A stretch of DNA of 47,394 nt from a virus: IMG/VR virus record IMGVR_UViG_3300013830_000001; one strand, 5' to 3'. Positions 17,142-47,195 of this stretch are shown one piece after another (position 1 is the stretch's first letter; every line of letters starts with the position of its first letter). A model generated the notes under the pieces. The model had not been told where the DNA came from. It worked only from the letters and a program-made list of their open reading frames with translations, and did no database searches. A program made the position numbers and the translations under genes.

Positions 17142-17450
17142 TTACCAGTTATTGTTATAAACGGCTGCACGAACATGAGTCCGTTTACTTCCTTTTTCAA
17201 TCAGATTCTCGTACTTAGCAATTTCAGACATGAGTTCGGATTCAAGATTGTAAAGCTCATCTGCTGACCAATCATGATGCTCAACATTTCTGGAACCAAT
17301 CTGGTACTTTACAATTTTCCCATCCATCAGTTCTTCAATTGCTTTATATGTGAGTTCCAACTGCTCATTCAGCATTCTGAGATGTCGCTCATAACGATTC
17401 TTTTTAGAACTTGAAATCGTCTCCAAAATTTCCACCTCCGTAAAAATCAA
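17142..17450 (-). CDS. Head-tail joining protein (lambda gpW-like)
   Basis: Lies between TerL and portal as in lambda; ..AIEELMDGKIVKYQIGSRNVEHHDWSADELYNLESEL.. parallels gpW. The true start may be the internal ATG at 17375. Confidence 0.55.
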   Translation of the reverse strand: MIFTEVEILETISSSKKNRYERHLRMLNEQLELTYKAIEELMDGKIVKYQIGSRNVEHHDWSADELYNLESELMSEIAKYENLIEKGSKRTHVRAAVYNNNW

Positions 17451-19362
17451 ATGAAGCCTTTTTACGCCTTGGCTTTTCAGGAGCTTTCTTTACTACATCT
17501 TGTTTGATTTCCTGCTCAATCTGATCCATGTTCAGATTTCCGGAAATGGTTCTAAATGCAGCCATTGCATAATTTCTACAGTCCAACGGCTCATTTCTCT
17601 TGTGTCCAACAATTGGTTTCCACACCCATTTAGACACACCGTTCTTTCTTTCATATACTTTTTTCTCTGACAGAAGGCCATTGAAGTATTCTTCGTTATA
17701 TCCTCTGTCCGGATTTGAAGGAAAATGGCAATACTTTGTCCCCGGAGACTGGACAAGCAAAGAGCTCATAATAAGTTCTTTTCCTGCATCAACTCCAAGG
17801 TTGTACAAGTTAATGTATTTAGGCTTGACAGATTTTCGTTTTGATTTTTTTGATTTTCCCCAAGTGCCTCTCAAAGTTATGTCATATCTGTTCGGGCGGG
17901 TAACGTATGGATAACCAGAACCGCCCCTTCCTCGAATAGCAAAGATGTTTTTGTACTTCCATTTGTAGCAAATTTCATAGACGTCTTCTGTATGATGTCC
18001 TTGGGAGTCAATAAACGTTAATGAAATTCTTCGCCCTTTGCCGTTCTTGTAATGCCATGTTTTGTCCATCAAGCCTTCAAGAGTGCTCCAGACCTGTTTG
18101 TTATCCTTAGAAGGAATGCCCATGATGATTCCTCGCTGGATTCCCCAAGTTTCCCCGAATTTTCCATGCCCTACTACTTCGTACTCCAGTCTGTCATCCT
18201 GAGTATCAACGCCCATAGTAAGCACCAACACTCCGTCTGGAATTTCAGCGTCGTACTCTTCGCGCCTTTTTAGATATTCTGATTCATCGCCTATGTCGCT
18301 TCTGTCTTCCCAGAGCTCTCCAAACAAAGTGTTGCAGACTACCTTCAATCTTTCTGGATCATCTTTTGATTCCAGAAATTTCATAATGATTTTTGCCCAT
18401 GGAGTCCAAGGCGAACAAAAAGCATTCAGCCAAAATGACCGAATGCCTTTGTTGTATGCTGTTGGGTTATTAGCCACCCATTTTTGCTTTTGACGTCTTG
18501 CCGTATCTTCCGGAATTAAACATCCGCAATGTGGGCAAAGCCAGTCAGGGCCAGACGTAATCTTATACTGATTCTTTCCATTTACTTTGGTGTGTGTTTC
18601 CTGATACCGGATGCTATTAAAAGTTATCTCTGAATACTCTCCGCATTCAGGACATTGTGTGCACCATCTTTCTTGTGTGCCTTGCAAATAAGATGTCTCA
18701 ATATTTGACGCGCCCTTGATTGTTGGGGTAGAAACTTCAACAGACTTACTGTTAAAGAACGTGGCTTGTCTTGCCTTGGCAAGCTCCCACGGGTCGCCTT
18801 CGCGTCCTGCGCTTGGAGCCCAGCGGTCGCGCTCATCTCCAATAATGTATCTGGCCGGAGTGGAAGCAAGTGCAGACGGGCTGTTGGAGCCTGTTATAAA
18901 AAGCCTTCCTCCGGGGAAAGACTTGATAAGTTTTGTGTTTGAATTATCACGTCCGCCCTTGGTAGGCTTTATTTTTTTCTTCAGTGGCTTGCAGTCTCGA
19001 ATCATCGGATTGATTCTTAGATCTGAAAACTTTGCTGCATCGTCCAAATTTGGCTGTACATAAATTATTGTCGCTGGGTCCTGATCTACTGCATAAGCAA
19101 TACAATTTAGCTCAAATTCAGACTTGCCAATCTGAGAAGCAGAAACCATTACAATGTTTCGAACTTTTGGATCTGTGAAAGCATCCATCGGTTCTTTCAA
19201 GTAAGGCGTCCTTGATGTTCTCCAAGGCCCAGCCTCGGCTGAACTTTCTGGTGAAAGTCTTCTATATTTATCAGCCCACTCCGAAACCGTTATGTCTTCA
19301 GGAGGGCTGAAGTTTTTACAAACTTTTTCAAATATATTCGTCGTCTGAGTCTTCATCGTCAA
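17404..19362 (-). CDS. terL: Terminase large subunit (lambda GpA family)
   Basis: 652 aa; ..VSEWADKYRRLSPESSAEAGPWRTSRTPYLKEPMDAF.., a Walker-like SASQIGKSE segment, and a Cys cluster CTQCPECGEY...CPHCGC. Confidence 0.9.
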   Translation of the reverse strand: MTMKTQTTNIFEKVCKNFSPPEDITVSEWADKYRRLSPESSAEAGPWRTSRTPYLKEPMDAFTDPKVRNIVMVSASQIGKSEFELNCIAYAVDQDPATIIYVQPNLDDAAKFSDLRINPMIRDCKPLKKKIKPTKGGRDNSNTKLIKSFPGGRLFITGSNSPSALASTPARYIIGDERDRWAPSAGREGDPWELAKARQATFFNSKSVEVSTPTIKGASNIETSYLQGTQERWCTQCPECGEYSEITFNSIRYQETHTKVNGKNQYKITSGPDWLCPHCGCLIPEDTARRQKQKWVANNPTAYNKGIRSFWLNAFCSPWTPWAKIIMKFLESKDDPERLKVVCNTLFGELWEDRSDIGDESEYLKRREEYDAEIPDGVLVLTMGVDTQDDRLEYEVVGHGKFGETWGIQRGIIMGIPSKDNKQVWSTLEGLMDKTWHYKNGKGRRISLTFIDSQGHHTEDVYEICYKWKYKNIFAIRGRGGSGYPYVTRPNRYDITLRGTWGKSKKSKRKSVKPKYINLYNLGVDAGKELIMSSLLVQSPGTKYCHFPSNPDRGYNEEYFNGLLSEKKVYERKNGVSKWVWKPIVGHKRNEPLDCRNYAMAAFRTISGNLNMDQIEQEIKQDVVKKAPEKPRRKKASFDFYGGGNFGDDFKF

Positions 19363-19933
19363 AATCCATGTATTCGTCCCAGCCTTCGCGGTCTCTTACA
19401 AGTTCTGCATATTTGTCTGGGTCATACTTATGATTTGATAACTCATTCAAAATGAGATGAACTTCTTTTTTTATTACATCCGCTGCCTCTGCAGGAGATT
19501 CAGCGTCGTAAACGTCTACAGCAACTCGACTTGGGAGAGCCAGAAGCATTGAACGAATCGTGTATATTAAATCGTTTGTCAGCGTTTCAACGTCTTCTGA
19601 GCGGTGCATTTTGCCCGCCACTTCCTTTAGCTCAAGCTCAAGCTTTTTCCGCTTCGCTCTTTTTATGCCGATATCTTCAGCTATCTTTTTCCCTTCAAGG
19701 CTGTCTTCCTTTGCTGCTCTTCCATAGGCCTTATCGGACAAGTACTTGATGTAAAGACGGACAGTCGGAATCAAATCATATCTTCTGCATTTCCTTCCGG
19801 TCTCTGGGTTCTTTACTTCTGTGGTACTTATGACTCCATCTTGTGTTAACTGCTGCACACGCCTAGTAGTTAGCCCAAAGAGTTGAGCAATTACTTCAAC
19901 CTTTACATAGTTACCATGATGTTCTTCAGCCAT
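19328..19933 (-). CDS. terS: Terminase small subunit (HTH, Nu1-like)
   Basis: 201 aa; N-terminal HTH VIAQLFGLTTRRVQQLTQDGV, acidic C-terminus, overlaps the TerL start. Confidence 0.7.
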   Translation of the reverse strand: MAEEHHGNYVKVEVIAQLFGLTTRRVQQLTQDGVISTTEVKNPETGRKCRRYDLIPTVRLYIKYLSDKAYGRAAKEDSLEGKKIAEDIGIKRAKRKKLELELKEVAGKMHRSEDVETLTNDLIYTIRSMLLALPSRVAVDVYDAESPAEAADVIKKEVHLILNELSNHKYDPDKYAELVRDREGWDEYMDFDDEDSDDEYI

Positions 19934-19941
19934 AACTCACC

Positions 19942-20589
19942 TTATTTGGATACAAGTGTAACCAGATTGCTCTTTTCCATCAGACGTTTCATCTTCTCAC
20001 TTGCGCTCTGCTCATAGTATTCCGCAATGTTCGAAAAATTAAATTTGCAGTGTCTGTAAGCTGCAGCTATCAGAAAGTCTTTTTCTTCTTTGCTGATACC
20101 GGATGATTTAATTTCCTTTAGAAGATTAAACGTTTCTCCCATGTCGTAACAGTCTGAAAGCTCAATAGGTTCCATACCGTTCTTGACTTCTTTCTCTATT
20201 TCCTTAATATCCTCGGACAAGTCAAGCCCGAAATCCGACATATCATAATCAGTAATTTGCTCTAAGTCCAAGTTGAGCTTGTCCAGATCAAAACCACTGT
20301 TCATGGTCAGCTGGTTATGGACAATGCCATAAGCTAGCCGCTGCTGATCTGTGAGAGAGTCGAGCCTGATACATGGTACTTCTTCAATTCCAAGTTCCAG
20401 AGCAGCTAGATAACGGCCATGCCCTTCAATGATGATATTGTCCTTCCAGATTCCAAGCGGATCAAGAAATCCAAAATCTTCAATAGATTGTTTAATCTGC
20501 TCTAACTGTTCTGGAGGATGCTTCTTGGCATTATTCGCATTCTCTTTCAGTTCCAAAGTCGGAACATATTCTACTTTTAATTTAGGCAT
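19942..20589 (-). CDS. ParB-like nuclease domain protein
   Basis: 215 aa; ..LKENANNAKKHPPEQLEQIKQSIEDFGFLDPLGIW..IIEGHGRYLAALELG.. (ParB/Srx N-terminal domain signature). Confidence 0.75.
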   Translation of the reverse strand: MPKLKVEYVPTLELKENANNAKKHPPEQLEQIKQSIEDFGFLDPLGIWKDNIIIEGHGRYLAALELGIEEVPCIRLDSLTDQQRLAYGIVHNQLTMNSGFDLDKLNLDLEQITDYDMSDFGLDLSEDIKEIEKEVKNGMEPIELSDCYDMGETFNLLKEIKSSGISKEEKDFLIAAAYRHCKFNFSNIAEYYEQSASEKMKRLMEKSNLVTLVSK

Positions 20590-21174
20590 TTAGTCTCCAA
20601 AGAATCTATTCATAGCATGATCAATACGTTCCTCAACCATCTTACTGAGTTTTTCTTCAACTTTTGGTCTACCATGCTCAGAAGCCATGATGGACGGTAC
20701 AGCAGGGCCAGTCGCCATTTTATAGTGTCTGTCTCCTCCGGTTCCAATTCTTTCTGTCAGATGATTCATGATCAAGTACGAGGACCGCTGCACATGTTTC
20801 CCAGTTCTCTTTTTGGTATATTCACCAACTTGAACCTTCTTGCCCTTCATTACTTCTGCGTAGGTGTTGTAGTCTCCAGCTGGGCGGGACTTCGGCTCAT
20901 AAGAGTATTCCTCCATAGCAACTGGGCCGCCAACATACGTCATTGACAAGTCATTCTCATTGCCACTCATGGAGATGTTGACTTCTCCTCCTGTGACATC
21001 GCCTTTGCTAATGGTATAAAGTTCTGTAACCGCAGAAGCAATCCAGCCTTTAGCACGTGCTTTAACGTCAGACATACAAGCCCGCATAGCCTTATCACTA
21101 TTTTCAATGCCTTGTTCACAGAACTCAAAGAGCTCATCAATGTTCTTGACCTCAACATAGATCATGTTTGCCAT
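20590..21174 (-). CDS. Hypothetical protein, first gene of the late operon (weak gpZ / HK97 gp10-like resemblance)
   Basis: 194 aa, GAGGTGA SD. Only length and pattern-level similarity to tail-completion proteins. Confidence 0.3.
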   Translation of the reverse strand: MANMIYVEVKNIDELFEFCEQGIENSDKAMRACMSDVKARAKGWIASAVTELYTISKGDVTGGEVNISMSGNENDLSMTYVGGPVAMEEYSYEPKSRPAGDYNTYAEVMKGKKVQVGEYTKKRTGKHVQRSSYLIMNHLTERIGTGGDRHYKMATGPAVPSIMASEHGRPKVEEKLSKMVEERIDHAMNRFFGD

Positions 21175-21278: not shown

Positions 21279-21505
21279 CGAACTTGTATATTTTTTCAAT
21301 TTTCGCATACTGAAGCATCTTCTTTTGAGCACTGCATCCACCAGTTATTGTGTGTCGGTATGTCCTGCAGCGCCTATAAACACTATATATTGTGGTTCGT
21401 AGCGAAAATGCCACAAAATTTAGACAAAAAATAGAAAGTGTTTGGGCGGTCGGACGCAGCCCCGTGGCGCTTTTGGATAGAAGGACCCGTAGAATATACA
21501 AAAAT

Positions 21506-21523
21506 AATGAATAATTATTCATT
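21506..21523. repeat. Perfect 18-bp palindrome AATGAATAATTATTCATT
   Basis: Read directly from the sequence; non-coding, between the GC-rich island terminator and the late promoter element. Confidence 0.9.
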
Positions 21524-21552
21524 GTCGTACCACCCTATTTTTTTGAAGTGCC

Positions 21553-21594
21553 AAAAAGCAGAAAGCAAAAAAGCGGGGCGCCGCCGCGCTCCGC
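21553..21594 (-). terminator. Intrinsic terminator closing the GC-rich island
   Basis: Minus strand GCGGAGCGC-GGCG-GCGCCCCGC (one A.C mismatch) followed by TTTTTTGCTTTCTGCTTTTT. Confidence 0.6.
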
Positions 21595-21800
21595 TCTTGT
21601 GCTTGTGCTCTTGCTCTGTGTGCTGTGCTTCGGTGGGGCTCCGCTTGCTGGGGTGGCACTAGACACGGCCGGGGGCTGTGGGCTCTTGCCTTGCTCTGCT
21701 CTCCCCTTAGTGCTCGGTGCTCTGGCGCTTGCAAGTGCGCGCCGTGCTTGCTTCAGCTGATGGGGCCCGCCGCTAGTGCTCCGCTGTGGGTCTGCTCTGC
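21573..21800 (-). other. GC-rich, strand-asymmetric non-coding island (candidate ncRNA or packaging/cos-type site)
   Basis: About 230 nt with roughly ten A residues on the plus strand (U-poor on the minus-strand transcript). Repeated GTGCT/AGCAC motifs and several G-runs. Preceded by a TTGACA box and followed by a terminator. Confidence 0.4.
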
Positions 21801-21857
21801 TTCTATTCCTTTCCCGCTACAAAAATTAAGACCTATACCAGCATGGCACAGGCCTTA

Positions 21858-21886
21858 TATATGTATGTACTTTTTACATCTGTCAA
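21858..21886 (-). promoter_or_regulatory. Possible sigma-A-type promoter reading into the GC-rich island
   Basis: Minus strand TTGACA (21886-21881), 17 nt, then CATATA within an ACATATATA stretch. Confidence 0.35.
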
Positions 21887-21913: not shown

Positions 21914-22159
21914 TTAGTCTTCGATGATCGTGCGGAAGTCTTCAAAGTCAAGTGCCGCGAGGCTTTCCTCTGTGGTCTCCTTGCCGATGCCCTCAAGGCC
22001 GGCATCTGCGATGTAGTCTATGACTGCCTCAAGTGCGGTCATGTCGGATGTGCTGATCTTTTCCCATGCTCTTTCGAGCTCTGCGGTCTGCTCTTCGGTA
22101 AGTGCGTCCCATGCGTCTCTGATCATCTGCTCATCGCCGTATACGTAATTGCTAGTCAT
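21914..22159 (-). CDS. Small, very acidic protein (81 aa), function unknown
   Basis: Own consensus-like promoter, AAGGAGAAAA SD; D/E-rich sequence ..DAWDALTEEQTAELERAWEK..LDFEDFRTIIED. Confidence 0.7.
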   Translation of the reverse strand: MTSNYVYGDEQMIRDAWDALTEEQTAELERAWEKISTSDMTALEAVIDYIADAGLEGIGKETTEESLAALDFEDFRTIIED

Positions 22160-23802: not shown

Positions 23803-24900
23803 TTAATCAAGTCCATTATACAGTTTCAGCATTCTGTCGAAATCGTTGTATAAATCTTGGATGTTTCCGGAGTGCCCGCACCAGTACAGATGATCTTGCT
23901 TCACGGCTGGCATATTGTACCAGATTCCAGGTCTGAACTTTGTTCCGCTCCAATAGCCGTCCTTATATCTTGCATCGAATGGGGCTGACTGTCCAGCTAG
24001 GTTAACAAAGCCATCGTTACGATACCAGCTCATGAAATCCGGATGATACTTCAGGCCCGCAGCGTTCCCGGAAATAGCCATTATGGTTCCGCAATAGCGA
24101 CAAGCACCAGACATTTCAAAAGTCGGTTCAAATGCTCTCTGAGCAAAATAGTACGTGCCCTTATTTACAACCTGCTTGGGGTTGATATGCTTCTGAACAA
24201 AATCAATATCCATTTCTTTTGATACATCATCGTCCAGACTCAAGCTGTACTTGGTGGCCTTGGCGATAGCTCCTCCTGTCCACTGATCAAGCTTGTTTTC
24301 ATAATCTCCATTGCCGTTGATGGTGTCGTTAAACATGATTCCAAAGATTGTGGCAATGCTGATACCTGTCCGGTCTGTTAAGGTTGCAGCCATCGTCCCG
24401 TTGTTGACCCCTGAGAGAGTCGTCACAGTATGAATCAGGTCGCCATGTCCTCCAGCAAAAAGGGGCGACAAATCGTCTGCAGCGGTTCCGTCCCGTTCCT
24501 CCTTGCTCCCCTGAGTAAAGAGATTAGAAACTTCTTTGACAGTTGCTCCGCCCAAAGAGTGGCCAAACAGGTCAATTTTCATGTGCTTCTCAGACTGCCC
24601 CAAGTCCTTCAATGCTCCTGGATAAGTTGCGCCGTATCTTTCATGGTGGACTCTGGCAGAGTGCACCTTGCCATAGTCTACACGCCCCCCGAACAAATAC
24701 GCCCACAGGATACATGCTCTGTCCCATGCAGAGTTGTAAGGGCCGAGGCTGGGATAATGGACTTCATATCCTTCACTCTGTAAATGCTCTATCAGATTGT
24801 TACCCTTATATCCCCAGTATGGGAGAAGGTCAGAGTTCTTCACTTCGTCTTCGTGTCCGTAGCCGTAAAGGCCATGGATGAGTACAATCGGGTATCTCAC
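23803..24900 (-). CDS. Triacylglycerol lipase / esterase, alpha/beta-hydrolase (staphylococcal/Bacillus family I.5-I.6-like), no signal peptide
   Basis: 365 aa; YPIVLIHGLYGYG, GGRVDYGKVHSARVHHERYGATYPG, nucleophile elbow GHSLGG, ..SPLFAGGHG..TTLSGVNNG.., WYRNDGFVN and KQDHLYW. These are collinear with S. aureus Geh-type lipases. GTG start overlaps the MTase stop (GTGA). Confidence 0.85.
   Translation of the reverse strand: MRYPIVLIHGLYGYGHEDEVKNSDLLPYWGYKGNNLIEHLQSEGYEVHYPSLGPYNSAWDRACILWAYLFGGRVDYGKVHSARVHHERYGATYPGALKDLGQSEKHMKIDLFGHSLGGATVKEVSNLFTQGSKEERDGTAADDLSPLFAGGHGDLIHTVTTLSGVNNGTMAATLTDRTGISIATIFGIMFNDTINGNGDYENKLDQWTGGAIAKATKYSLSLDDDVSKEMDIDFVQKHINPKQVVNKGTYYFAQRAFEPTFEMSGACRYCGTIMAISGNAAGLKYHPDFMSWYRNDGFVNLAGQSAPFDARYKDGYWSGTKFRPGIWYNMPAVKQDHLYWCGHSGNIQDLYNDFDRMLKLYNGLD
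24796..24888. repeat. 93-nt direct repeat, copy 1 (codons 5-35 of the lipase gene)
   Basis: Matches 26536-26628: the first 51 nt are identical and the remaining 42 nt carry 6 substitutions, 5 of them synonymous in the lipase frame. Confidence 0.9.
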
Positions 24901-28966: not shown

Positions 28967-29202
28967 TCCTCGCATTCTTCAGCCTCTCTTTCTCGCTCCT
29001 CTTCAATTTCGAACTCAAGATACGTTTTTGCTTTTTCCAAGTCTTCCAATCTGGATACTCCCGGCTTGCTCCCAGCACGAAAAATGTATTTGATAACGTT
29101 TCCAAGAGCGAAATTCATGTCCCAATTCTGAATTACCCTTATAGGCTCGATTTTATCAGAAGTTTTGTAATACTCAGGTCTTATCAAGGCAAATCCTCCC
29201 AA
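28963..29202 (-). CDS. DUF3310-family phage protein
   Basis: 79 aa; ..IEPIRVIQNWDMNFALGNVIKYIFRAGSKPG..EDLEKAKTYL.. is the characteristic DUF3310 pattern. Confidence 0.75.
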   Translation of the reverse strand: MGGFALIRPEYYKTSDKIEPIRVIQNWDMNFALGNVIKYIFRAGSKPGVSRLEDLEKAKTYLEFEIEEEREREAEECEE

Positions 29203-29717
29203 ATTTTGACTTCTACTCGCGGTATGGTGCTGTATAGCTTCCTTCCGTAGACGTTGGCTATAACTTTATCATCTTTGAACGCAATCCCTTGTAGGCCGTC
29301 TAGGACGATTTTAATAACATTGTCGATATCAGGCTTTTTCATGGGGACAAGCTCTCCGTTCAGCATTGCTGCTCTTTTCGTCTTGCTGACCGATTTTGGG
29401 ATTTTGTAAAAAGCATTAACCGACACATTCAGAGCTGATTCTTCCGGGAATTGGTAACTCTCGCAGTACTTGAGATATTCATATGCAACTCGCTTTTCAT
29501 AGTCTTTCGTATTTTGGTCAGTATAGGCATGTCCCTTCTTCGTGAATCTGGGTCTCCCCTTGCCTCTCGGCTCCCCAACCACTGTAAATTGCTTTTTAAT
29601 CAATCGCTCACCTCTTATATCTTGGCTCCACTTTTTCATAGAGAGATTCAAGGTCAATTCCCGCACCCTGAAGCTTTTTGGTGCATATCCATCCATCTTC
29701 ATCCGCTCCAAGTTCAT
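29184..29717 (-). CDS. rusA: Holliday junction resolvase RusA
   Basis: ..FTVVGEPRGKGRPRFTKKGHAYTDQNTKDYE.. and ..PDIDNVIKIVLDGLQGIAFKDDKVI... The track ORF overlaps the upstream gene by 110 nt; the real start is probably internal (for example the ATG at 29639). Confidence 0.8.
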   Translation of the reverse strand: MNLERMKMDGYAPKSFRVRELTLNLSMKKWSQDIRGERLIKKQFTVVGEPRGKGRPRFTKKGHAYTDQNTKDYEKRVAYEYLKYCESYQFPEESALNVSVNAFYKIPKSVSKTKRAAMLNGELVPMKKPDIDNVIKIVLDGLQGIAFKDDKVIANVYGRKLYSTIPRVEVKIWEDLP

Positions 29718-29952
29718 AGCGTTCTCTCAGCTCTTCATGGAGCGTGGAATAGGTATCCACAAAACGCTTCAGCCGTTTTTCTCCAAATCCAAACTCATTG
29801 TGAAGGACAAACAGGATGGTTGCCAGTTCATCCATAAAAAGACGGTCTCCAATTTTAACTAACTCTTCTTTTACCTCTCTTTTTATGTCCTGCTTGATTG
29901 AATTCAGCTGCTGAGAAGACAGATATTGATTTGCGCTAACATGAGCCTTCAT
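29608..29952 (-). CDS. Hypothetical protein
   Basis: 114 aa, in-operon, no motif recognised. Confidence 0.5.
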   Translation of the reverse strand: MKAHVSANQYLSSQQLNSIKQDIKREVKEELVKIGDRLFMDELATILFVLHNEFGFGEKRLKRFVDTYSTLHEELRERYELGADEDGWICTKKLQGAGIDLESLYEKVEPRYKR

Positions 29953-29961
29953 TTTCTACAC

Positions 29962-30168
29962 CTACTGTTCGTCAAATATAATTTTTGCTTTTGGTGGAAT
30001 TCTCAGCAGAATTCCAACCACTTCATCAGCTGTCTTGTCTAGCTGATCTGCGATGTCGTCGTTCACGGAGAGCGTCAGCGTCTTGCCCAGTATCGGCGAT
30101 GAGCGGTAGTCCTTGATCTGGCCTGCAACTTTTAGCTTCATCAGAGCTGTCAAACTTGATACCGTCAA
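29962..30168 (-). CDS. Hypothetical small protein
   Basis: 68 aa from a TTG (ATG at 30141 is an alternative); no clear SD. Confidence 0.35.
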   Translation of the reverse strand: MTVSSLTALMKLKVAGQIKDYRSSPILGKTLTLSVNDDIADQLDKTADEVVGILLRIPPKAKIIFDEQ

Positions 30169-30210
30169 CTACGGTTTTTTTCGCATTATATTTTCTGTAC
30201 ACTTGTCCAC

Positions 30211-30609
30211 CTATTTAGAACGGTAACAGTTCTTCTCAATTTCGTTAAAGTCGTACGCTGTGGTTTTACCTAAATACAAAAAGCTCATCGCATTAATTCT
30301 CTGAAGAGTCAGACCTTCAATTCTGTTTTCAGGAGTCTTTTTCAGACTGTGACCACTCGTATTGACATTGCTGAGATAAGTGCACGGTGGATGTGCAATG
30401 ATTAAGTCCCAGTGCTCAACTTCAATCTTCTCTCCTGTCTGAAGCCGCATTACCCCCCCCGAAATAACAGACAGGCTGTCGTCTAAAATGTGCCATTCAG
30501 GGTGTCCGCCGCTGCACTTTTTGATGTCACTGCTATAGGCGTTGTGTCCTCGCTTCCGAAACTCAATGCAAGTTCTCTGTGACTCCTCACAAGCTACTAA
30601 AACGTTCAT
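30211..30609 (-). CDS. Conserved phage protein with ACEESQ ... HPPCT motifs (C5-MTase-like fold suspected, function unknown)
   Basis: 132 aa; MNVLVACEESQ..GGHPEWHI..DLIIAHPPCTYLS; the pattern recurs in prophage proteins of unknown function. Confidence 0.5.
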   Translation of the reverse strand: MNVLVACEESQRTCIEFRKRGHNAYSSDIKKCSGGHPEWHILDDSLSVISGGVMRLQTGEKIEVEHWDLIIAHPPCTYLSNVNTSGHSLKKTPENRIEGLTLQRINAMSFLYLGKTTAYDFNEIEKNCYRSK

Positions 30610-30621
30610 ACATCGTCCTCC

Positions 30622-31092
30622 TTAGAACGGCAGGTCGTCGTCGCTACCATCTATTAGCCGTGCCAACGGGATTCCGTCATCTTCTGCTGTTGCATTACTA
30701 AACCCCGTGTTGCGTTTATAGCTATTATTATTTCTTTCCATGTTGTTTTGGTTGCTCTGTACGGTTTTGCTTCCATAGTCTCCGCAAAAAGAAATGTCAC
30801 GGGCTAAGATTTCCGTTGTATAAACTTTTTCGCCATCCTGGTTCGTGTAACTTCCTGCTTCAATCTTTCCGCTTATAGCAATCAATTTACCCTTTGAAAA
30901 GTTCCTACAAATAAATTCCGCTGTTCCACGCCATGCAATGCAGTTAATAAAATCCGCTTTCTTTTCCTCTCCTTGCTTCTTAGGACGGTCAACGGCTACT
31001 GTGAACCGTGTATAGTTTATACCGTTGCTAGTGGTTTTTAACTCCGCGTCTTTCGTGAGCCGGCCCATGATGATAGCACAATTAATTGACAT
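30622..31092 (-). CDS. ssb: Single-stranded DNA-binding protein
   Basis: 156 aa; OB-fold N-terminus MSINCAIIMGRLTKDAELK.., acidic tip DGSDDDLPF. Confidence 0.9.
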   Translation of the reverse strand: MSINCAIIMGRLTKDAELKTTSNGINYTRFTVAVDRPKKQGEEKKADFINCIAWRGTAEFICRNFSKGKLIAISGKIEAGSYTNQDGEKVYTTEILARDISFCGDYGSKTVQSNQNNMERNNNSYKRNTGFSNATAEDDGIPLARLIDGSDDDLPF

Positions 31093-31148
31093 TGAAATAC
31101 CTCTTTTGATTATCTATGTAGGGCGGCATTTTGCCGCCCATTGTTTAT

Positions 31149-31967
31149 TTACTTGCTTTCTTCCTGTTCCTCTTCCACTATCTGCGACGTCTGCGATATA
31201 GTTAGACACGGCGTGTCAATCACGTTAGGTTCTGCGGACATATCGTCTGAAATGGTAGTTTTAATCGTTTCATCTGTTGAAACTTCTCTCATAAACTCCG
31301 CGGAAAGTGGCGCATATTTCAACGCCTTTTTAAGAACGGTCTTTTTTGCCATTTCTTCAAAATTTGTTGTCCATGGGGAAGTGTACCCCGAACTATAAGC
31401 CTTGCTATACTTCTTTGCATGTTCTTTTACTTCATCAATACTCATACACTCAAAACCATATCCGCCGCCCTTAGTCTTGAACACGGCATAAACTTTAATC
31501 GGTTCTCCTCGTTCCCCGTCTGCTGGAATATGTTCAAGTTCTGGTTCAAGTCCATATTTGATTTTAAATTCATCGTTTCTATAAACAACATGTGACTGTA
31601 TCGTTACAACTTCGCCAGACCTATAAGCAAGGTCTATCAAGCCCTTATATCCAATCTGGTAAGACGCTTCAATAACCCCATGATTACGGTATGGGATGAT
31701 ATAAGCCTGTCCAATCGGTGTGTTCGGCTCTAACCCTAATTGCGCCGAACTCATCATAGCACCTAAAAAACTTTGGGGCGTACACTCGCCCAATTTAGGG
31801 TTCGTAGAAATAGCGGATAAAACCATTCTTGTAAATCGTTCTGGACTAATAACCGACGGCAACGCCTTTGCTATTTCGCCCTGCATTTCCTTGACGTAAG
31901 ACTGCATGTTTTTATGGTTTCCGTTCTGCATTGCCTGTTCTTTTTTCTGAATAATATCGTTTGCCAT
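31149..31967 (-). CDS. recT: RecT-family single-strand annealing protein
   Basis: 272 aa; ..PERFTRMVLSAISTNPKLGECTPQSFLGAMMSSAQLGLEPNTPIGQAYIIPY.. Confidence 0.85.
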   Translation of the reverse strand: MANDIIQKKEQAMQNGNHKNMQSYVKEMQGEIAKALPSVISPERFTRMVLSAISTNPKLGECTPQSFLGAMMSSAQLGLEPNTPIGQAYIIPYRNHGVIEASYQIGYKGLIDLAYRSGEVVTIQSHVVYRNDEFKIKYGLEPELEHIPADGERGEPIKVYAVFKTKGGGYGFECMSIDEVKEHAKKYSKAYSSGYTSPWTTNFEEMAKKTVLKKALKYAPLSAEFMREVSTDETIKTTISDDMSAEPNVIDTPCLTISQTSQIVEEEQEESK

Positions 31968-31969
31968 AG

Positions 31970-32911
31970 TTATTTATCCTTTCTTGAAAATCTGAACACC
32001 CTTGAACTTTTCGTAGTATAGTACGGTTCTAAGTCAATATTCGGGTTTTCCCTTGCGAACTTCTTAATATCGAAACTCTTTCTAGTTTGATTTTTCCAAG
32101 TGACTTTATAACCGTCATAAGTTCCAACGCTATACTCTTTCATTGCGTCCTTTATATGGTTTTCTTCAAATCTGATTTTGTCGTCAATTTCCTTTTTTTG
32201 CTCTTTTAGTCTGTACAAATTTTCAATGTTATTAGAGAGCGGTAAAAGGTCAATTTCCGTGTCGTTGCTTTCTGAATAAACTGCGCCTAGTGCTCTGCTA
32301 GTGCTTTCCGTATAGTCAACGGGCGGAGGCGTCTCGGTTTTGACGTATTCCCAAAACTGTCTTTCCATTCTCATTAATGCGGATATCTCTTCTTCATCTC
32401 GGTCCAGTTCAAACACATAAAAGCCACTAGAGAAAACCAGAACGGCCAAATATATTTTGTCCGCGCCTGTTACGGAAAGATAGTGTAACATTTGGGTGTA
32501 ATAAGTATCTGGATATTCGCCACTTTTGTATTTCTTTAAATTTAATTCGCTTGTTGTCTTGCACTCCAAAAGACTATTTTCACCAGAAACAACCCTATCA
32601 ACGTCTGCAAGCGCAAACGGGTAATAGGGATTTTTAATAATTGCGTTTTTACGTCTTACTTTCTTCCCCGTTTGTTCTTCAAAACGCTTAGCAACATAAT
32701 TTTCCAAGTCTCTTCCCTGTCTCATTCTCTCGTTATCTTCTATAGGCGGCAACTTTCCTAATTTGTCACAATATACCGCGTAAGGACTACGCCATTTATT
32801 TACTCCAATTACCGCGCCTGCGTCGCTACCGCCTATTCCTTGTTTTCTTTGTTCTATCCACTCTTCATGTGACATGTTTTTCGTATCAATATAAATCAAA
32901 TCCTTATACAT
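31970..32911 (-). CDS. YqaJ-like (lambda Exo-type) recombination exonuclease
   Basis: 313 aa; ..RKQGIGGSDAGAVIGVNKWRSPYAVY.., paired with recT. Confidence 0.8.
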   Translation of the reverse strand: MYKDLIYIDTKNMSHEEWIEQRKQGIGGSDAGAVIGVNKWRSPYAVYCDKLGKLPPIEDNERMRQGRDLENYVAKRFEEQTGKKVRRKNAIIKNPYYPFALADVDRVVSGENSLLECKTTSELNLKKYKSGEYPDTYYTQMLHYLSVTGADKIYLAVLVFSSGFYVFELDRDEEEISALMRMERQFWEYVKTETPPPVDYTESTSRALGAVYSESNDTEIDLLPLSNNIENLYRLKEQKKEIDDKIRFEENHIKDAMKEYSVGTYDGYKVTWKNQTRKSFDIKKFARENPNIDLEPYYTTKSSRVFRFSRKDK

Positions 32912-45359: not shown

Positions 45360-47195
45360 TTAACCACCAATCGTTACTGTGTTGCCGCCAGCGGCATTTT
45401 CAGAGTATGTTATGCTGGTCGATCCTCCACCTGTTCCGATGGTTGTGGATGTCTCAGACTTACCAGCAAGGAAGTTGAAGAGTACGGACGAAATGTACCC
45501 CTCCGTTTTTCCGCGCTTTACGTGTACGCGGACGCACACGCCCCATTTTTCAGACGTTTTCGCCGAGTTCGTAAATTTGTAGATGGTGCTCTTGGTCACA
45601 GACTCTTTGATGTCCTCCCATGTCGGCGTGTCGTCGAAGCCGTTAGTACAAGCCTCAATTGTGTATAGCTCCACATCTTCCGGGATGTCTCCAAGCACGG
45701 CGCAGATCAATTCGGTCGGTGCTTCCGTTGCCGGTACAGGAATGATGTTCTGGAAGTATGCTTCAGTGACATTCTTTGCGAACTTCTTAGAGTAGGTCGC
45801 GGTCTCTTTACCATCGTCAACTTCTATTGTCATTGTGTGAGAGCCGTTGACAACTCTCAGCCACTCATCAGATGTAAAAGTGTAAGCCCCTCCGTCGCGT
45901 CCTGTGACGGTCTTGACGGTCTTTCCGTCCAGCTTCCATTCCGTTGTCAGCGTGTCTCCCGTGTCCTCGTCTGAGACTGTGTAGACGATTTCAGGAGGTT
46001 CGGTGGTGAATGTTTCTTCCTGCGAGACCTTTGCGATCGTAATTGTCGGCTCGTGGTTGCTAAAGACAATTGACTCACTGCCCTCGGTATACTCAGAGTC
46101 GATGCTGTCGGTCTGGTTGATTGAGCAAACTCTGAACTTTGCTGTGCCAGCTCCGAACGGGACGACGCCAGTCCATCTCGTTCCGATTCCCTCATATACT
46201 GTGGTCCATTCGCCGGAGCCGTACTTCACCTGCAATCTGTACCCAATGGAGGTGATTGACGGGTCTGTACTCTTAGACCACGTTACCGTTGCATCTTTGC
46301 CTCCTCTCAGCTGGGAATCATAAATGATTTTTTCCGGCGCTGGCGGTGCAGTTGAAAGCAGTACAGTGTAGTCACCGTCCGCGTCTTTATCCGATGAAAC
46401 GTATACATCGCCGTCAAGAGACACGCCAAAGCGCACTCCATAGGACGTGTAGGCCTTAGTGCGGAAAGTCTCGCCCTCATTGTACATTGCCATCATACAG
46501 CAATAGTCATAGTAGTAGCAGTTTGCTATCCAGTATGGCCGCGGTACTCCGCTCTTCGGAGTCCAGTCAACTGTGATGGTGTCTGACCCGTTCGGCTTCG
46601 CCTGTGAGTGCTTAGCGCCCTCTTCAGACATGACAAAGTTTCGCTTATACGGGTCGTTAAAGTAAGGGAAGCGTGTACCGTATGAGTACACGTTGTTGTC
46701 GTTTGCATACCCGCCGAGCTCGTTATAGTCGTACAGCCAAATCTTACTGTTAATGGTTACGGTTGAACCGTAGTACAAGTTGTTTTCTACTTTGCGGGAT
46801 GCTGTCTGACACATCGCAATTTCGCGAGGGTCCCACTCGTTCAACATACCAGGGATATTGTCATAAGCATCTACTCCAACGTGAGACGCGTCTGGTGCCT
46901 GATCGGATGCGTGCTTTGCCGTATACCAGTTCTTTTTCCCAGAGTTCATCCACTGAAGGAGGTTCGACCACCCCAGCCTGTTGTTCCCGTAATCGCTAAT
47001 TGATCCCTGGTTGTTGTACGGCTCTTTCGCGTCAAAAGGCCTTGTGTCATCGCAGTACAGATTAGTTAGCTGTACGGAGTTTGTTGGGAAGCCTGTATGT
47101 GCCTTGTCGGTGATGACCATTCTGGTACGCTTTCCCCAGCGTTTACCAAACTTTACAACGTCGCCGACTTTCAAACTGCTAAGTCTTTGCGCCAT
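45360..47195 (-). CDS. Large multidomain fibre/host-recognition protein (DUF6273-like N-terminus, FN3-like and Ig-like domains)
   Basis: 611 aa; ..LKVGDVVKFGKRWG...GNNRLGWSNLLQWMNSGKKNWY.., FN3-like ..DATVTWSKSTDPSITSIGYRLQ..; C-terminus ..AAGGNTVTIGG; AAGGGAGG SD. Confidence 0.6.
   Translation of the reverse strand: MAQRLSSLKVGDVVKFGKRWGKRTRMVITDKAHTGFPTNSVQLTNLYCDDTRPFDAKEPYNNQGSISDYGNNRLGWSNLLQWMNSGKKNWYTAKHASDQAPDASHVGVDAYDNIPGMLNEWDPREIAMCQTASRKVENNLYYGSTVTINSKIWLYDYNELGGYANDNNVYSYGTRFPYFNDPYKRNFVMSEEGAKHSQAKPNGSDTITVDWTPKSGVPRPYWIANCYYYDYCCMMAMYNEGETFRTKAYTSYGVRFGVSLDGDVYVSSDKDADGDYTVLLSTAPPAPEKIIYDSQLRGGKDATVTWSKSTDPSITSIGYRLQVKYGSGEWTTVYEGIGTRWTGVVPFGAGTAKFRVCSINQTDSIDSEYTEGSESIVFSNHEPTITIAKVSQEETFTTEPPEIVYTVSDEDTGDTLTTEWKLDGKTVKTVTGRDGGAYTFTSDEWLRVVNGSHTMTIEVDDGKETATYSKKFAKNVTEAYFQNIIPVPATEAPTELICAVLGDIPEDVELYTIEACTNGFDDTPTWEDIKESVTKSTIYKFTNSAKTSEKWGVCVRVHVKRGKTEGYISSVLFNFLAGKSETSTTIGTGGGSTSITYSENAAGGNTVTIGG

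Follow-up and report, generated by a model that had tools for sequence, protein, structure and literature searches.

A thymine-poor, non-coding island upstream of a predicted lambda-type cos site in a temperate phage genome, and T-free tracts at the cos sites of other phages

The window analyzed here is a stretch of 47,394 nucleotides of viral DNA (IMG/VR record IMGVR_UViG_3300013830_000001), and the element in question is an island of GC-rich, non-coding DNA at 21596..21812 that is poor in T on the minus strand, the sense strand of the surrounding genes (11 T in 217 nt). Along that strand lie, in order, an 81-aa open reading frame (ORF; 22159..21914), the island, a neck gene, a ParB-like gene, the genes for TerS and TerL, and the portal gene. 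These neighbors are all on the minus strand, and the intergenic region that contains the island measures 740 nt overall. The neck gene (20590..21174; phrog_27) is Ne1-like, occupies a position annotated Ne1 in phages Lagaffe and Shimadzu, and is the first gene past the candidate cohesive-end site (cos) described below. TerS (19933..19328; phrog_57, 4e-31) is of the lambda type, and TerL (19362..17404; PF05876 and PF20454, both at E about 1e-73; phrog_15) is of the lambda gpA type. Between the neck gene and terS stands the ParB-like gene (19942..20589), whose ParB-N-like product matches, in its N-terminal part, the phage methyltransferase family phrog_498; in phage Epona, a methyltransferase occupies this slot between cos and terS. 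The phage is temperate, with an integrase, a repressor, and an Ant anti-repressor.

An initial annotation had singled out the core of the island, 21573-21800, as GC-rich with about ten A residues on the plus strand, and this description stands. The plus strand of these 228 nt holds 10 A, 73 C, 82 G, and 63 T. Its A count is the minimum among all 228-nt segments of the 47.4 kb (mean 55.0, standard deviation 10.9, first percentile 31), and its GC content of 0.68 is the maximum, the runner-up reaching 0.62. The AGCAC-type repeats reported at the same time are there as well: AGCAC and GAGCA occur eight times each on the minus strand of the 217-nt island, and the commonest 5-mer in 2000 shuffles of the island averaged 3.75 copies, with 9 as the largest count. 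A long-range complementarity is likewise present, but the island folds no more stably than its shuffles. Its folding z score is +1.62 on the sense strand (less stable than shuffles) and +0.17 on the antisense strand, and over 15 islands (that of the window and 14 analogues introduced below) the scores of both strands range from -2.6 to +1.6 with no consistent trend.

Other searches characterize the island mainly by what it lacks. Rfam covariance models gave no match in the window at either the gathering threshold or a permissive one, and the best local match near the island (E = 0.64) overlaps the terminator only, so that the check for a known RNA family returned nothing beyond local noise. 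A search of the window for tRNA and tmRNA was negative, and the island DNA had no match among GenBank phages. A second copy of the island was sought within the window and not found, and no reverse transcriptase domain appeared among the ORFs scanned, which did not include every small ORF; a variable or template repeat of a diversity-generating retroelement (DGR) was rejected on these two counts. The ORFs called in the island had been considered artefacts, and this is supported indirectly by the analogous islands of relatives. Within families of related tracts there are indels of 1, 2, 4, 5, 7, and 28 nt, and the variable columns are evenly distributed over the three codon phases without a 3-nt periodicity, which together exclude coding on either strand.

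Two hairpins flank the island on the minus strand. The GC hairpin and U-rich tract of the initial annotation are real: an intrinsic terminator at 21551..21595 closes the island, with a stem AGCGGAGCGC/GCGCCCCGCT (21595..21572; 9 of 10 positions paired) that is followed by a T-rich tail (TTTTTTGCTTTCTGCTTTTT). Upstream of the island, at 21820..21857, is a terminator-like hairpin of 14 pairs with a loop of 3 and an ATTTTT; it starts 57 nt past the stop codon of the 81-aa gene and looks like the terminator of that gene. Just before this hairpin stands a promoter-like TTGACA-17-CATATA (21858..21886, minus strand, read directly; TTGACA at 21886..21881), which had been proposed to drive the island. 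The site is present, but CATATA matches TATAAT at only 3 of 6 positions, the promoter scan omitted the site, the hairpin directly follows the -10, and a counterpart sought in the diverged relative L018 was absent. It is a weak site and probably not the promoter of the island.

Past the island on the same strand is a candidate cos site. The cosQ-like heptamer GGGTCCT at 21482..21488, together with its flanks (TACGGGTCCTT, 21491..21481), agrees with lambda at 11 of 11 positions; TACGGGTCCTT is lambda 48470-48480 and has no other exact match within the window. We take lambda cosQ to be GGGTCCT at 48473-48479, a coordinate that fits the sequence, and the right end of lambda reads ...TACGGGTCCTTTCCGGTGATCCGACAGGTTACG|GGGCGGCGACCT. 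A cosN-like GC core, CCACGGGGCTGCGTCCGACCGCCCA (21443..21467), follows the box and is conserved in L018, and the pattern GGGTCCT-N15-27-CGGGGC occurs once in the window versus 0.01 times expected. In published descriptions, cosQ is a 7-bp subsite for termination whose sequence and distance from cosN are both conserved (PMC4669245, PMC9026076). The distance from the cosQ-like box to the nick is 23 nt in lambda, Lagaffe, phage nd4, Shimadzu, and L018, and also in 72 of 84 IMG/VR loci, the others having 22 or 24 nt. Because of this 23-nt rule, a top-strand nick is predicted between 21459 and 21458 (and at the equivalent position of L018), which would leave the putative cohesive end TGCGTCCGACCG (21458..21447). 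An alignment of the window to the Lagaffe junction by eye was dropped for the lambda cosQ/cosN match, a profile having given no match. RGGTNCT also stands about 23 nt before the nick in phages Lelie and Lily, Exiguobacterium phage 137, and L167-L169.

By the features tested, the core beside the island appears to be an ordinary member of the lambda cos family. It shares with lambda a gpA-type TerL, a phrog_57 TerS, GGGTCCT with its flanks, a GC-rich cosN-like core, and, in relatives whose ends are known, the 23-nt spacing. It differs in that lambda has no T-poor tract before cosQ, that the tract lies outside the three defined subsites, and that the cohesive end of the window is a prediction. 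The initial annotation had offered a cos or pac region as one option, and it was right about the neighborhood, as the island adjoins the lambda-type cosQ/cosN pair (21488..21443, about 110 bp downstream), but the island itself is not cos. Lying at least 108 bp upstream of cosQ, unconserved in sequence, and absent from some phages with the same cos, it is none of cosQ, cosN, I2, or cosB. In the virion, it would be located at about bp 140-350 from the last-packaged end.

Relatives of the island fall at two distances. In 19 contigs from other samples, the island region is 98.4-100% identical and too close to inform. The diverged relative L018/L019 has a neck protein that is 74% identical, and in L018, an analogous GC-rich, T-poor tract lies in the same place, contains AGCAC and GAGCGGCGCGC words, and is closed by an analogous terminator (CCAGGGC...GCCCTGG TCTTTTT). 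The islands of the window and L018 are unalignable (51% identity, 64 gap columns), and the block of 165 nt that directly follows shows 71% identity and 8 gap columns. L018 (385-445) holds the 24-nt unit AGCACACGCGAGCGGCGCGCTCCA twice and L019 (385-421) once, a difference that shows slippage changing the tract between near-identical phages. Searches for the window-type cos motif in IMG/VR and metagenomes returned only chance matches or near-identical copies, a search of IMG/VR with the neighbor proteins of the island found no relatives, and a search of genome contigs found no TerS relative and, for TerL, three prophages, none with a tract.

Further relatives came through TerS, which is related to proteins of Faecalibacterium phages Lagaffe and Epona, phage nd4, and Roseburia phage Shimadzu. 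The records of Lagaffe, nd4, and Shimadzu start about 85 nt before terS and end just past a T-free tract behind the Ne1 neck gene; that of Shimadzu has GTGCTTGCGAG (11 nt) at both ends. In Lagaffe, cos was placed upstream of terS by PhageTerm on virion reads (PMC5883640), and MT839859 has the tract arrangement of Lagaffe, continuous across the junction. Tracts of the Lagaffe type begin at the neck-gene stop codon and have neither promoter nor terminator. In Epona, the tract lies between sigma-factor and methyltransferase genes and is followed by a hairpin and a GTAGGTACT box. In Lagaffe, nd4, Shimadzu, Epona, and about 60 IMG/VR contigs, the analogous tract runs up to a cosQ-like box. This box, RGGTNCT, appears to be shared by lambda and by phages with gpA-type terminases from Clostridia, Paenibacillus, and Exiguobacterium.

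A search for the cos junction motif CTGCGGTGCTKGCGAG yielded at least 120 IMG/VR stretches, and the 104 with at least 400 nt upstream were surveyed. At 63 of these 104 loci, a 100-nt segment with at most 5 T (mostly 0-2) ends 27-140 nt upstream of the motif, and in nearly all 63 this segment has the lowest T count anywhere in the locus, even though loci run to as much as 14 kb. About 23 of the loci without a tract are chance motif matches in unrelated coding DNA; therefore, roughly three quarters of genuine cos sites bear a tract. Defined strictly, 61 tracts have a median length of 163 nt (74-202), start at or near the neck-gene stop, and end at AAGG|TACT. They form 10 clusters with no detectable mutual similarity, and their composition is 0.24-0.47 A, 0.30-0.44 C, 0.21-0.33 G, and 0-0.04 T. 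With the window, L018, and Epona, the 10 clusters make 13 independent sequence families, all short of T on the same strand, the one whose 3' terminus falls at the right end of the chromosome.

What these families have in common is composition and place. No k-mer of 5 nt or more is common to most tracts beyond composition-matched shuffles, and even six Faecalibacterium-type tracts with near-identical cos have no common motif; each tract is internally repetitive, and the helical periodicity of the sequences is weak and inconsistent. On the RNA-like strand, C outnumbers G in L018 and in every one of the ten Lagaffe-type tracts, the wrong skew for an R-loop, and the Lagaffe tract is A-rich without G-runs or C-runs. 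The R-loop- or G-quadruplex-prone element entertained initially is therefore not general and finds no support. What the tract accompanies is cos and not any given gene: its neighbors are the neck gene and terS in Lagaffe, the sigma factor and a methyltransferase in Epona, and, in the window, the 81-aa ORF and the neck gene. Terminators bracket it in the window, L018, and Epona lineages. In Lelie (L156), where PhageTerm gives a 5' cos and the upstream genes point away from cos, the 650-nt non-coding right end has 46% C, 30% G, 15% A, and 10% T on the same strand. This end also holds CCGATGAC-like repeats, about eight of them, and has CCCTACATAGCTATATAGGAGAGGG twice. In Paenibacillus phage Lily (L164), the last 1 kb or so at the right end is non-coding and A-rich and contains GGTAACAG repeats, with the adjacent HicA/HicB genes on the opposite strand.

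The shortage of T exceeds what neutral composition would give. At fourfold-degenerate sites of the same strand, T makes up 8-13% in high-GC phages, 21-25% in Shimadzu-like phages, 26% in L018, and 32% in the window, and a neutral origin is rejected by these values (8-32%) versus 0-4% in the tracts. Within clusters, 76 polymorphic columns are A/G (45 of them singletons) and 16 are C/T (14 singletons), although C is the commonest base. C/T columns being few and mostly singletons, new T residues arise but rarely persist, which points to selection against T in the tracts. Deamination of an exposed strand was rejected by reasoning, as it predicts that G loss would exceed T loss on the T-free strand. 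Avoidance of a protospacer-adjacent motif such as TTC was rejected on inspection, because GAA turns up often on the T-free strand in several tracts.

How, then, should the island be read? The tracts are under a compositional constraint, hold a fixed position relative to cos in many phages, are non-coding, have no RNA structure, and can be dispensed with. The island is in all likelihood no RNA gene. The data narrow the element down to one that is polar and stands beside cosQ, that needs no particular sequence and no RNA structure, and that is helpful and not essential, and we infer a cis action of the tract, as DNA, during some strand-polar event at the right end. We tentatively favor reading the island as a non-coding, fast-evolving DNA spacer that is selected to exclude T from the gene-sense strand and serves as a cis element on the cosQ (termination) side of a lambda-type cos, and we hold this with less than even confidence.

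As to mechanism, the hypothesis that we prefer, which is not a result, is that the tract would be a signal-free runway or insulator before cosQ. A T-free strand with an A-free partner could contain no sigma-70 promoter, no ATG, GTG, or TTG start, no stop codon, and no sense U-tract terminator. Such a duplex could also hold no site of the integration host factor (IHF) type, no palindrome containing A or T, and no sense-strand look-alike of cosQ (RGGTNCT) or cosN, and without TpA and ApT steps it might be uniform in character. Bracketing terminators, in the three lineages that have them, would keep transcription off the tract, and a translocating terminase would reach cosQ on DNA free of proteins and decoys. 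A runway or insulator is favored because the T-free duplex carries none of these signals and because terminators bracket the tract in three lineages.

Several points weigh against this reading. A runway or insulator does not explain the strictness of the T exclusion or its one-sidedness at cos. Transcription probably runs through the Lagaffe-type tracts, as no terminators flank them. We know of no base-specific effects on terminase translocation. The cos of the window was placed by the homology of short motifs only, and an nhmmer profile of Lagaffe-type cos sites gave no match at the candidate site. Further, some phages with the same cos boxes have no tract (L066, L101, L110, L132, and L167-L169): in L066, L101, L110, L132, and L167, the cosQ-like box comes directly after the neck-gene stop, and in L168 and L169, ordinary AT-rich spacers take the place of the tract. 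Lambda, too, is without one, with 36-39% T upstream of cosQ. Any role in termination is therefore auxiliary, and the tract is accessory and dispensable. Phages Taranis and Pioen, which package by headful (PMC11792537), have no tract. L037, L040, L130, and L137 have relaxed tracts with about 8% T.

The alternatives survive to different degrees. First, the tract could be an end-protection or recombination element that attenuates or redirects AddAB/RecBCD once it has entered at the free right cos end, or at the end injected first. The Chi sequences known from Firmicutes (AGCGG, GAAGCGG, GCGCGTG) are T-poor, and AGCGG occurs four times in the island of the window, every copy on the sense strand, and four to five times in that of L018. 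The orientation fits, as the T-free strand is the 3'-ended strand scanned from the right end, and an accessory distribution suits a host-dependent function. However, no word of 5 nt or more is common to most tracts beyond shuffles, nor to the six Faecalibacterium-type tracts, and the excess of C over G on the scanned strand (ten Lagaffe-type tracts and L018) contrasts with the G-rich known Chi sequences. The nearest precedent is in phages LLS and MD8, whose many top-strand Chi sites cluster at the right end and are active toward RecBCD that comes in from that side (PMC12315714). These clusters resemble the tracts as a strand-specific right-end feature on the 3'-ended strand that is accessory and found in part of a family, but they consist of copies of one host octamer over kilobases, including coding DNA, in phages without a Rec module (PMC12315714). 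The T-free tracts, by contrast, are compact (75-230 nt), non-coding, and without a common word, and the window phage, unlike the Chi-rich LLS class, has its own recombination module on the minus strand at 29184-32911 (RecE-like exonuclease, RecT-like annealase, SSB, and RusA resolvase). On balance, we consider this possibility unlikely, although it fares best among the alternatives.

Second, the tract could work at the level of RNA, its U-free, start-codon-free transcript with more C than G serving as a Rho utilization (rut) or Rho-loading region, or as an insulator that stops transcription before cos. Intrinsic terminators occur at the equivalent place in the window, L018, and Epona, a hint that it is important for transcription to stop short of cos. 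C outnumbers G in L018 and the ten Lagaffe-type tracts, and Lagaffe-type tracts begin at a stop codon and are untranslatable; in being an untranslated stretch past a stop codon with C above G, they do resemble rut regions. But rut regions are G-poor and tolerate U, Rho not disfavoring that base, whereas the tracts hold 21-33% G, are almost free of U, and are tied to cos, not to operon ends. Moreover, a terminator already lies upstream of the island in the window, no co-directional gene lies upstream in Lelie and Lily, and there is no selection for weak structure beyond the effect of composition. This explanation thus seems quite unlikely.

Third, TerS or some other protein of the phage could bind an array of sites in the tract, which would then be an arm like cosB or pacL with a motif peculiar to each phage. 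SPP1 TerS binds on both sides of pac. The internal repeats of each tract, with motifs that differ between phages (RAGCAC in the window, AAAGC in Lagaffe, AAGGC, CACAGCGC, and CCGATGAC in Lelie), and the change in copy number of the 24-nt unit between L018 and L019 also speak for such an array. Nevertheless, TerS sites of the lambda family are in cosB and the tract is on the cosQ side, there is no common motif, periodicity is weak and inconsistent, and phages with the same cos and a similar TerS do without the tract. Nor would one expect universal exclusion of T across unrelated motifs from sites specific for a protein. The TerS-binding repeats of the initial annotation are therefore not supported, and we regard a binding array in general as improbable.

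Fourth, and with much the same low plausibility, the tract could have no function, being filler generated by slippage or the product of a local strand-biased mutation near a DNA end. Low-complexity internal repeats, rapid turnover, and dispensability are all in keeping with this. It is hard to reconcile with 13 unrelated sequence families that are short of the same base on the same strand, with 8-32% T at neutral sites, or with C/T polymorphisms that are too few and mostly singletons; exposed-strand deamination would deplete G over T, opposite to what is observed, and neither a DGR reverse transcriptase (in the ORFs scanned) nor a second copy was found. Finally, a stand-alone non-coding RNA of about 290 nt, for example a protein or RNA sponge with its own promoter as first proposed, seems very unlikely, because the TTGACA box upstream, the strong terminator downstream, and the repeated AGCAC words of the window are set against the lack of an Rfam match, a folding z score of +1.6 and no structure signal in the 15 islands, a sequence unconserved between relatives, a hairpin right after the putative -10, a promoter absent from L018, and Lagaffe-type tracts that have neither promoter nor terminator.

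Several other features surround the island. A box, AAATAGGGTGGTA (21528..21540, minus strand), is identical in L018 and opens the conserved cos block. Between the terminator of the island and cosQ sits a perfect 18-bp palindrome, AATGAATAATTATTCATT (21506..21523), which might be bound by a dimeric protein such as TerS, the ParB-like protein, or a DNA-bending protein. L018 retains the palindrome in part, and L161 and L163 differ from it by a T>C change at its center. Independent assemblies (L008, L011, L012, L014-L017) break within or shortly after the island (window 21310-21825), with contig ends at 21514 (twice, the center of the palindrome), 21481 (just past cosQ), 21660, and 21825 and one contig start at 21786; these breaks could be physical DNA ends or a loss of coverage in the GC-rich tract. 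On the left-end side of cos, a promoter-like box, TTCGCTACG-N3-CACAATATATAGT (21382..21406, minus strand), is conserved in L018 (762-785), the spacer being N2-3 over the two phages, and many IMG/VR loci have a related TTTCGTTACG box after cos, as do Lagaffe, Shimadzu, Epona, Taranis, and Exiguobacterium phage 137. The box may serve as a late promoter for the phage sigma factor or, alternatively, as a cosB element.

Farther away on the minus strand, a 365-aa lipase-like protein (PF24708 Lip_C, E = 4e-44; 23803-24900), an unusual cargo for a phage, is encoded between methyltransferase genes and the right end, and a 611-aa Hoc-like head-decoration protein (phrog_10993) is encoded at 45360-47195. 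Hoc-like proteins bear DGR variable regions in Mushu-type Faecalibacterium phages (bioRxiv 10.64898/2026.05.08.723808).

With respect to known systems, the island is neither a defined cos subsite nor a member of a described RNA family, and we class it as cos-region accessory DNA. Repeats beside packaging signals are familiar from the DR2 arrays of the herpes simplex virus 1 (HSV-1) 'a' sequence and the SRL/SRR heptamer arrays of T7. Like the tracts, these are short, GC-rich or simple, strand-asymmetric repeats of variable copy number at a cleavage or packaging site; they differ in belonging to other virus families, in having unrelated sequences, and in that none is set by the exclusion of a single base. 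Full-text literature searches found no mention of T-free tracts at cos. Returning to the spacer reading and extending it from the island to the tracts as a whole, it is possible, and we put this a shade more cautiously still, that they constitute an unrecognized class of cos-accessory element, set by strand-specific exclusion of one base and acting on the last-packaged, first-injected 150-350 bp. Such an element might tune the approach of the terminase motor to cosQ, seat the terminal DNA in the neck, or control the processing of the free right end by helicase-nucleases of host or phage.

The tracts are found in a large family of human and animal gut phages that includes Lagaffe, Shimadzu, Epona, and dozens of metagenomic relatives. 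In metagenomic phage contigs, a tract is a practical marker for cos and for the physical ends of the genome. As Faecalibacterium A2-165 with Lagaffe and Roseburia intestinalis L1-82 with Shimadzu provide culturable carriers, the hypotheses above are testable. cosQ, cosN, and cosB are the textbook parts of lambda cos. If the reading of the tract as a spacer is true, the tract would join them as a fourth part that keeps its position, is under selection, and is defined by a base that it excludes, and would offer a handle on the events at chromosome ends in packaging termination, injection, and end processing in Firmicute hosts.

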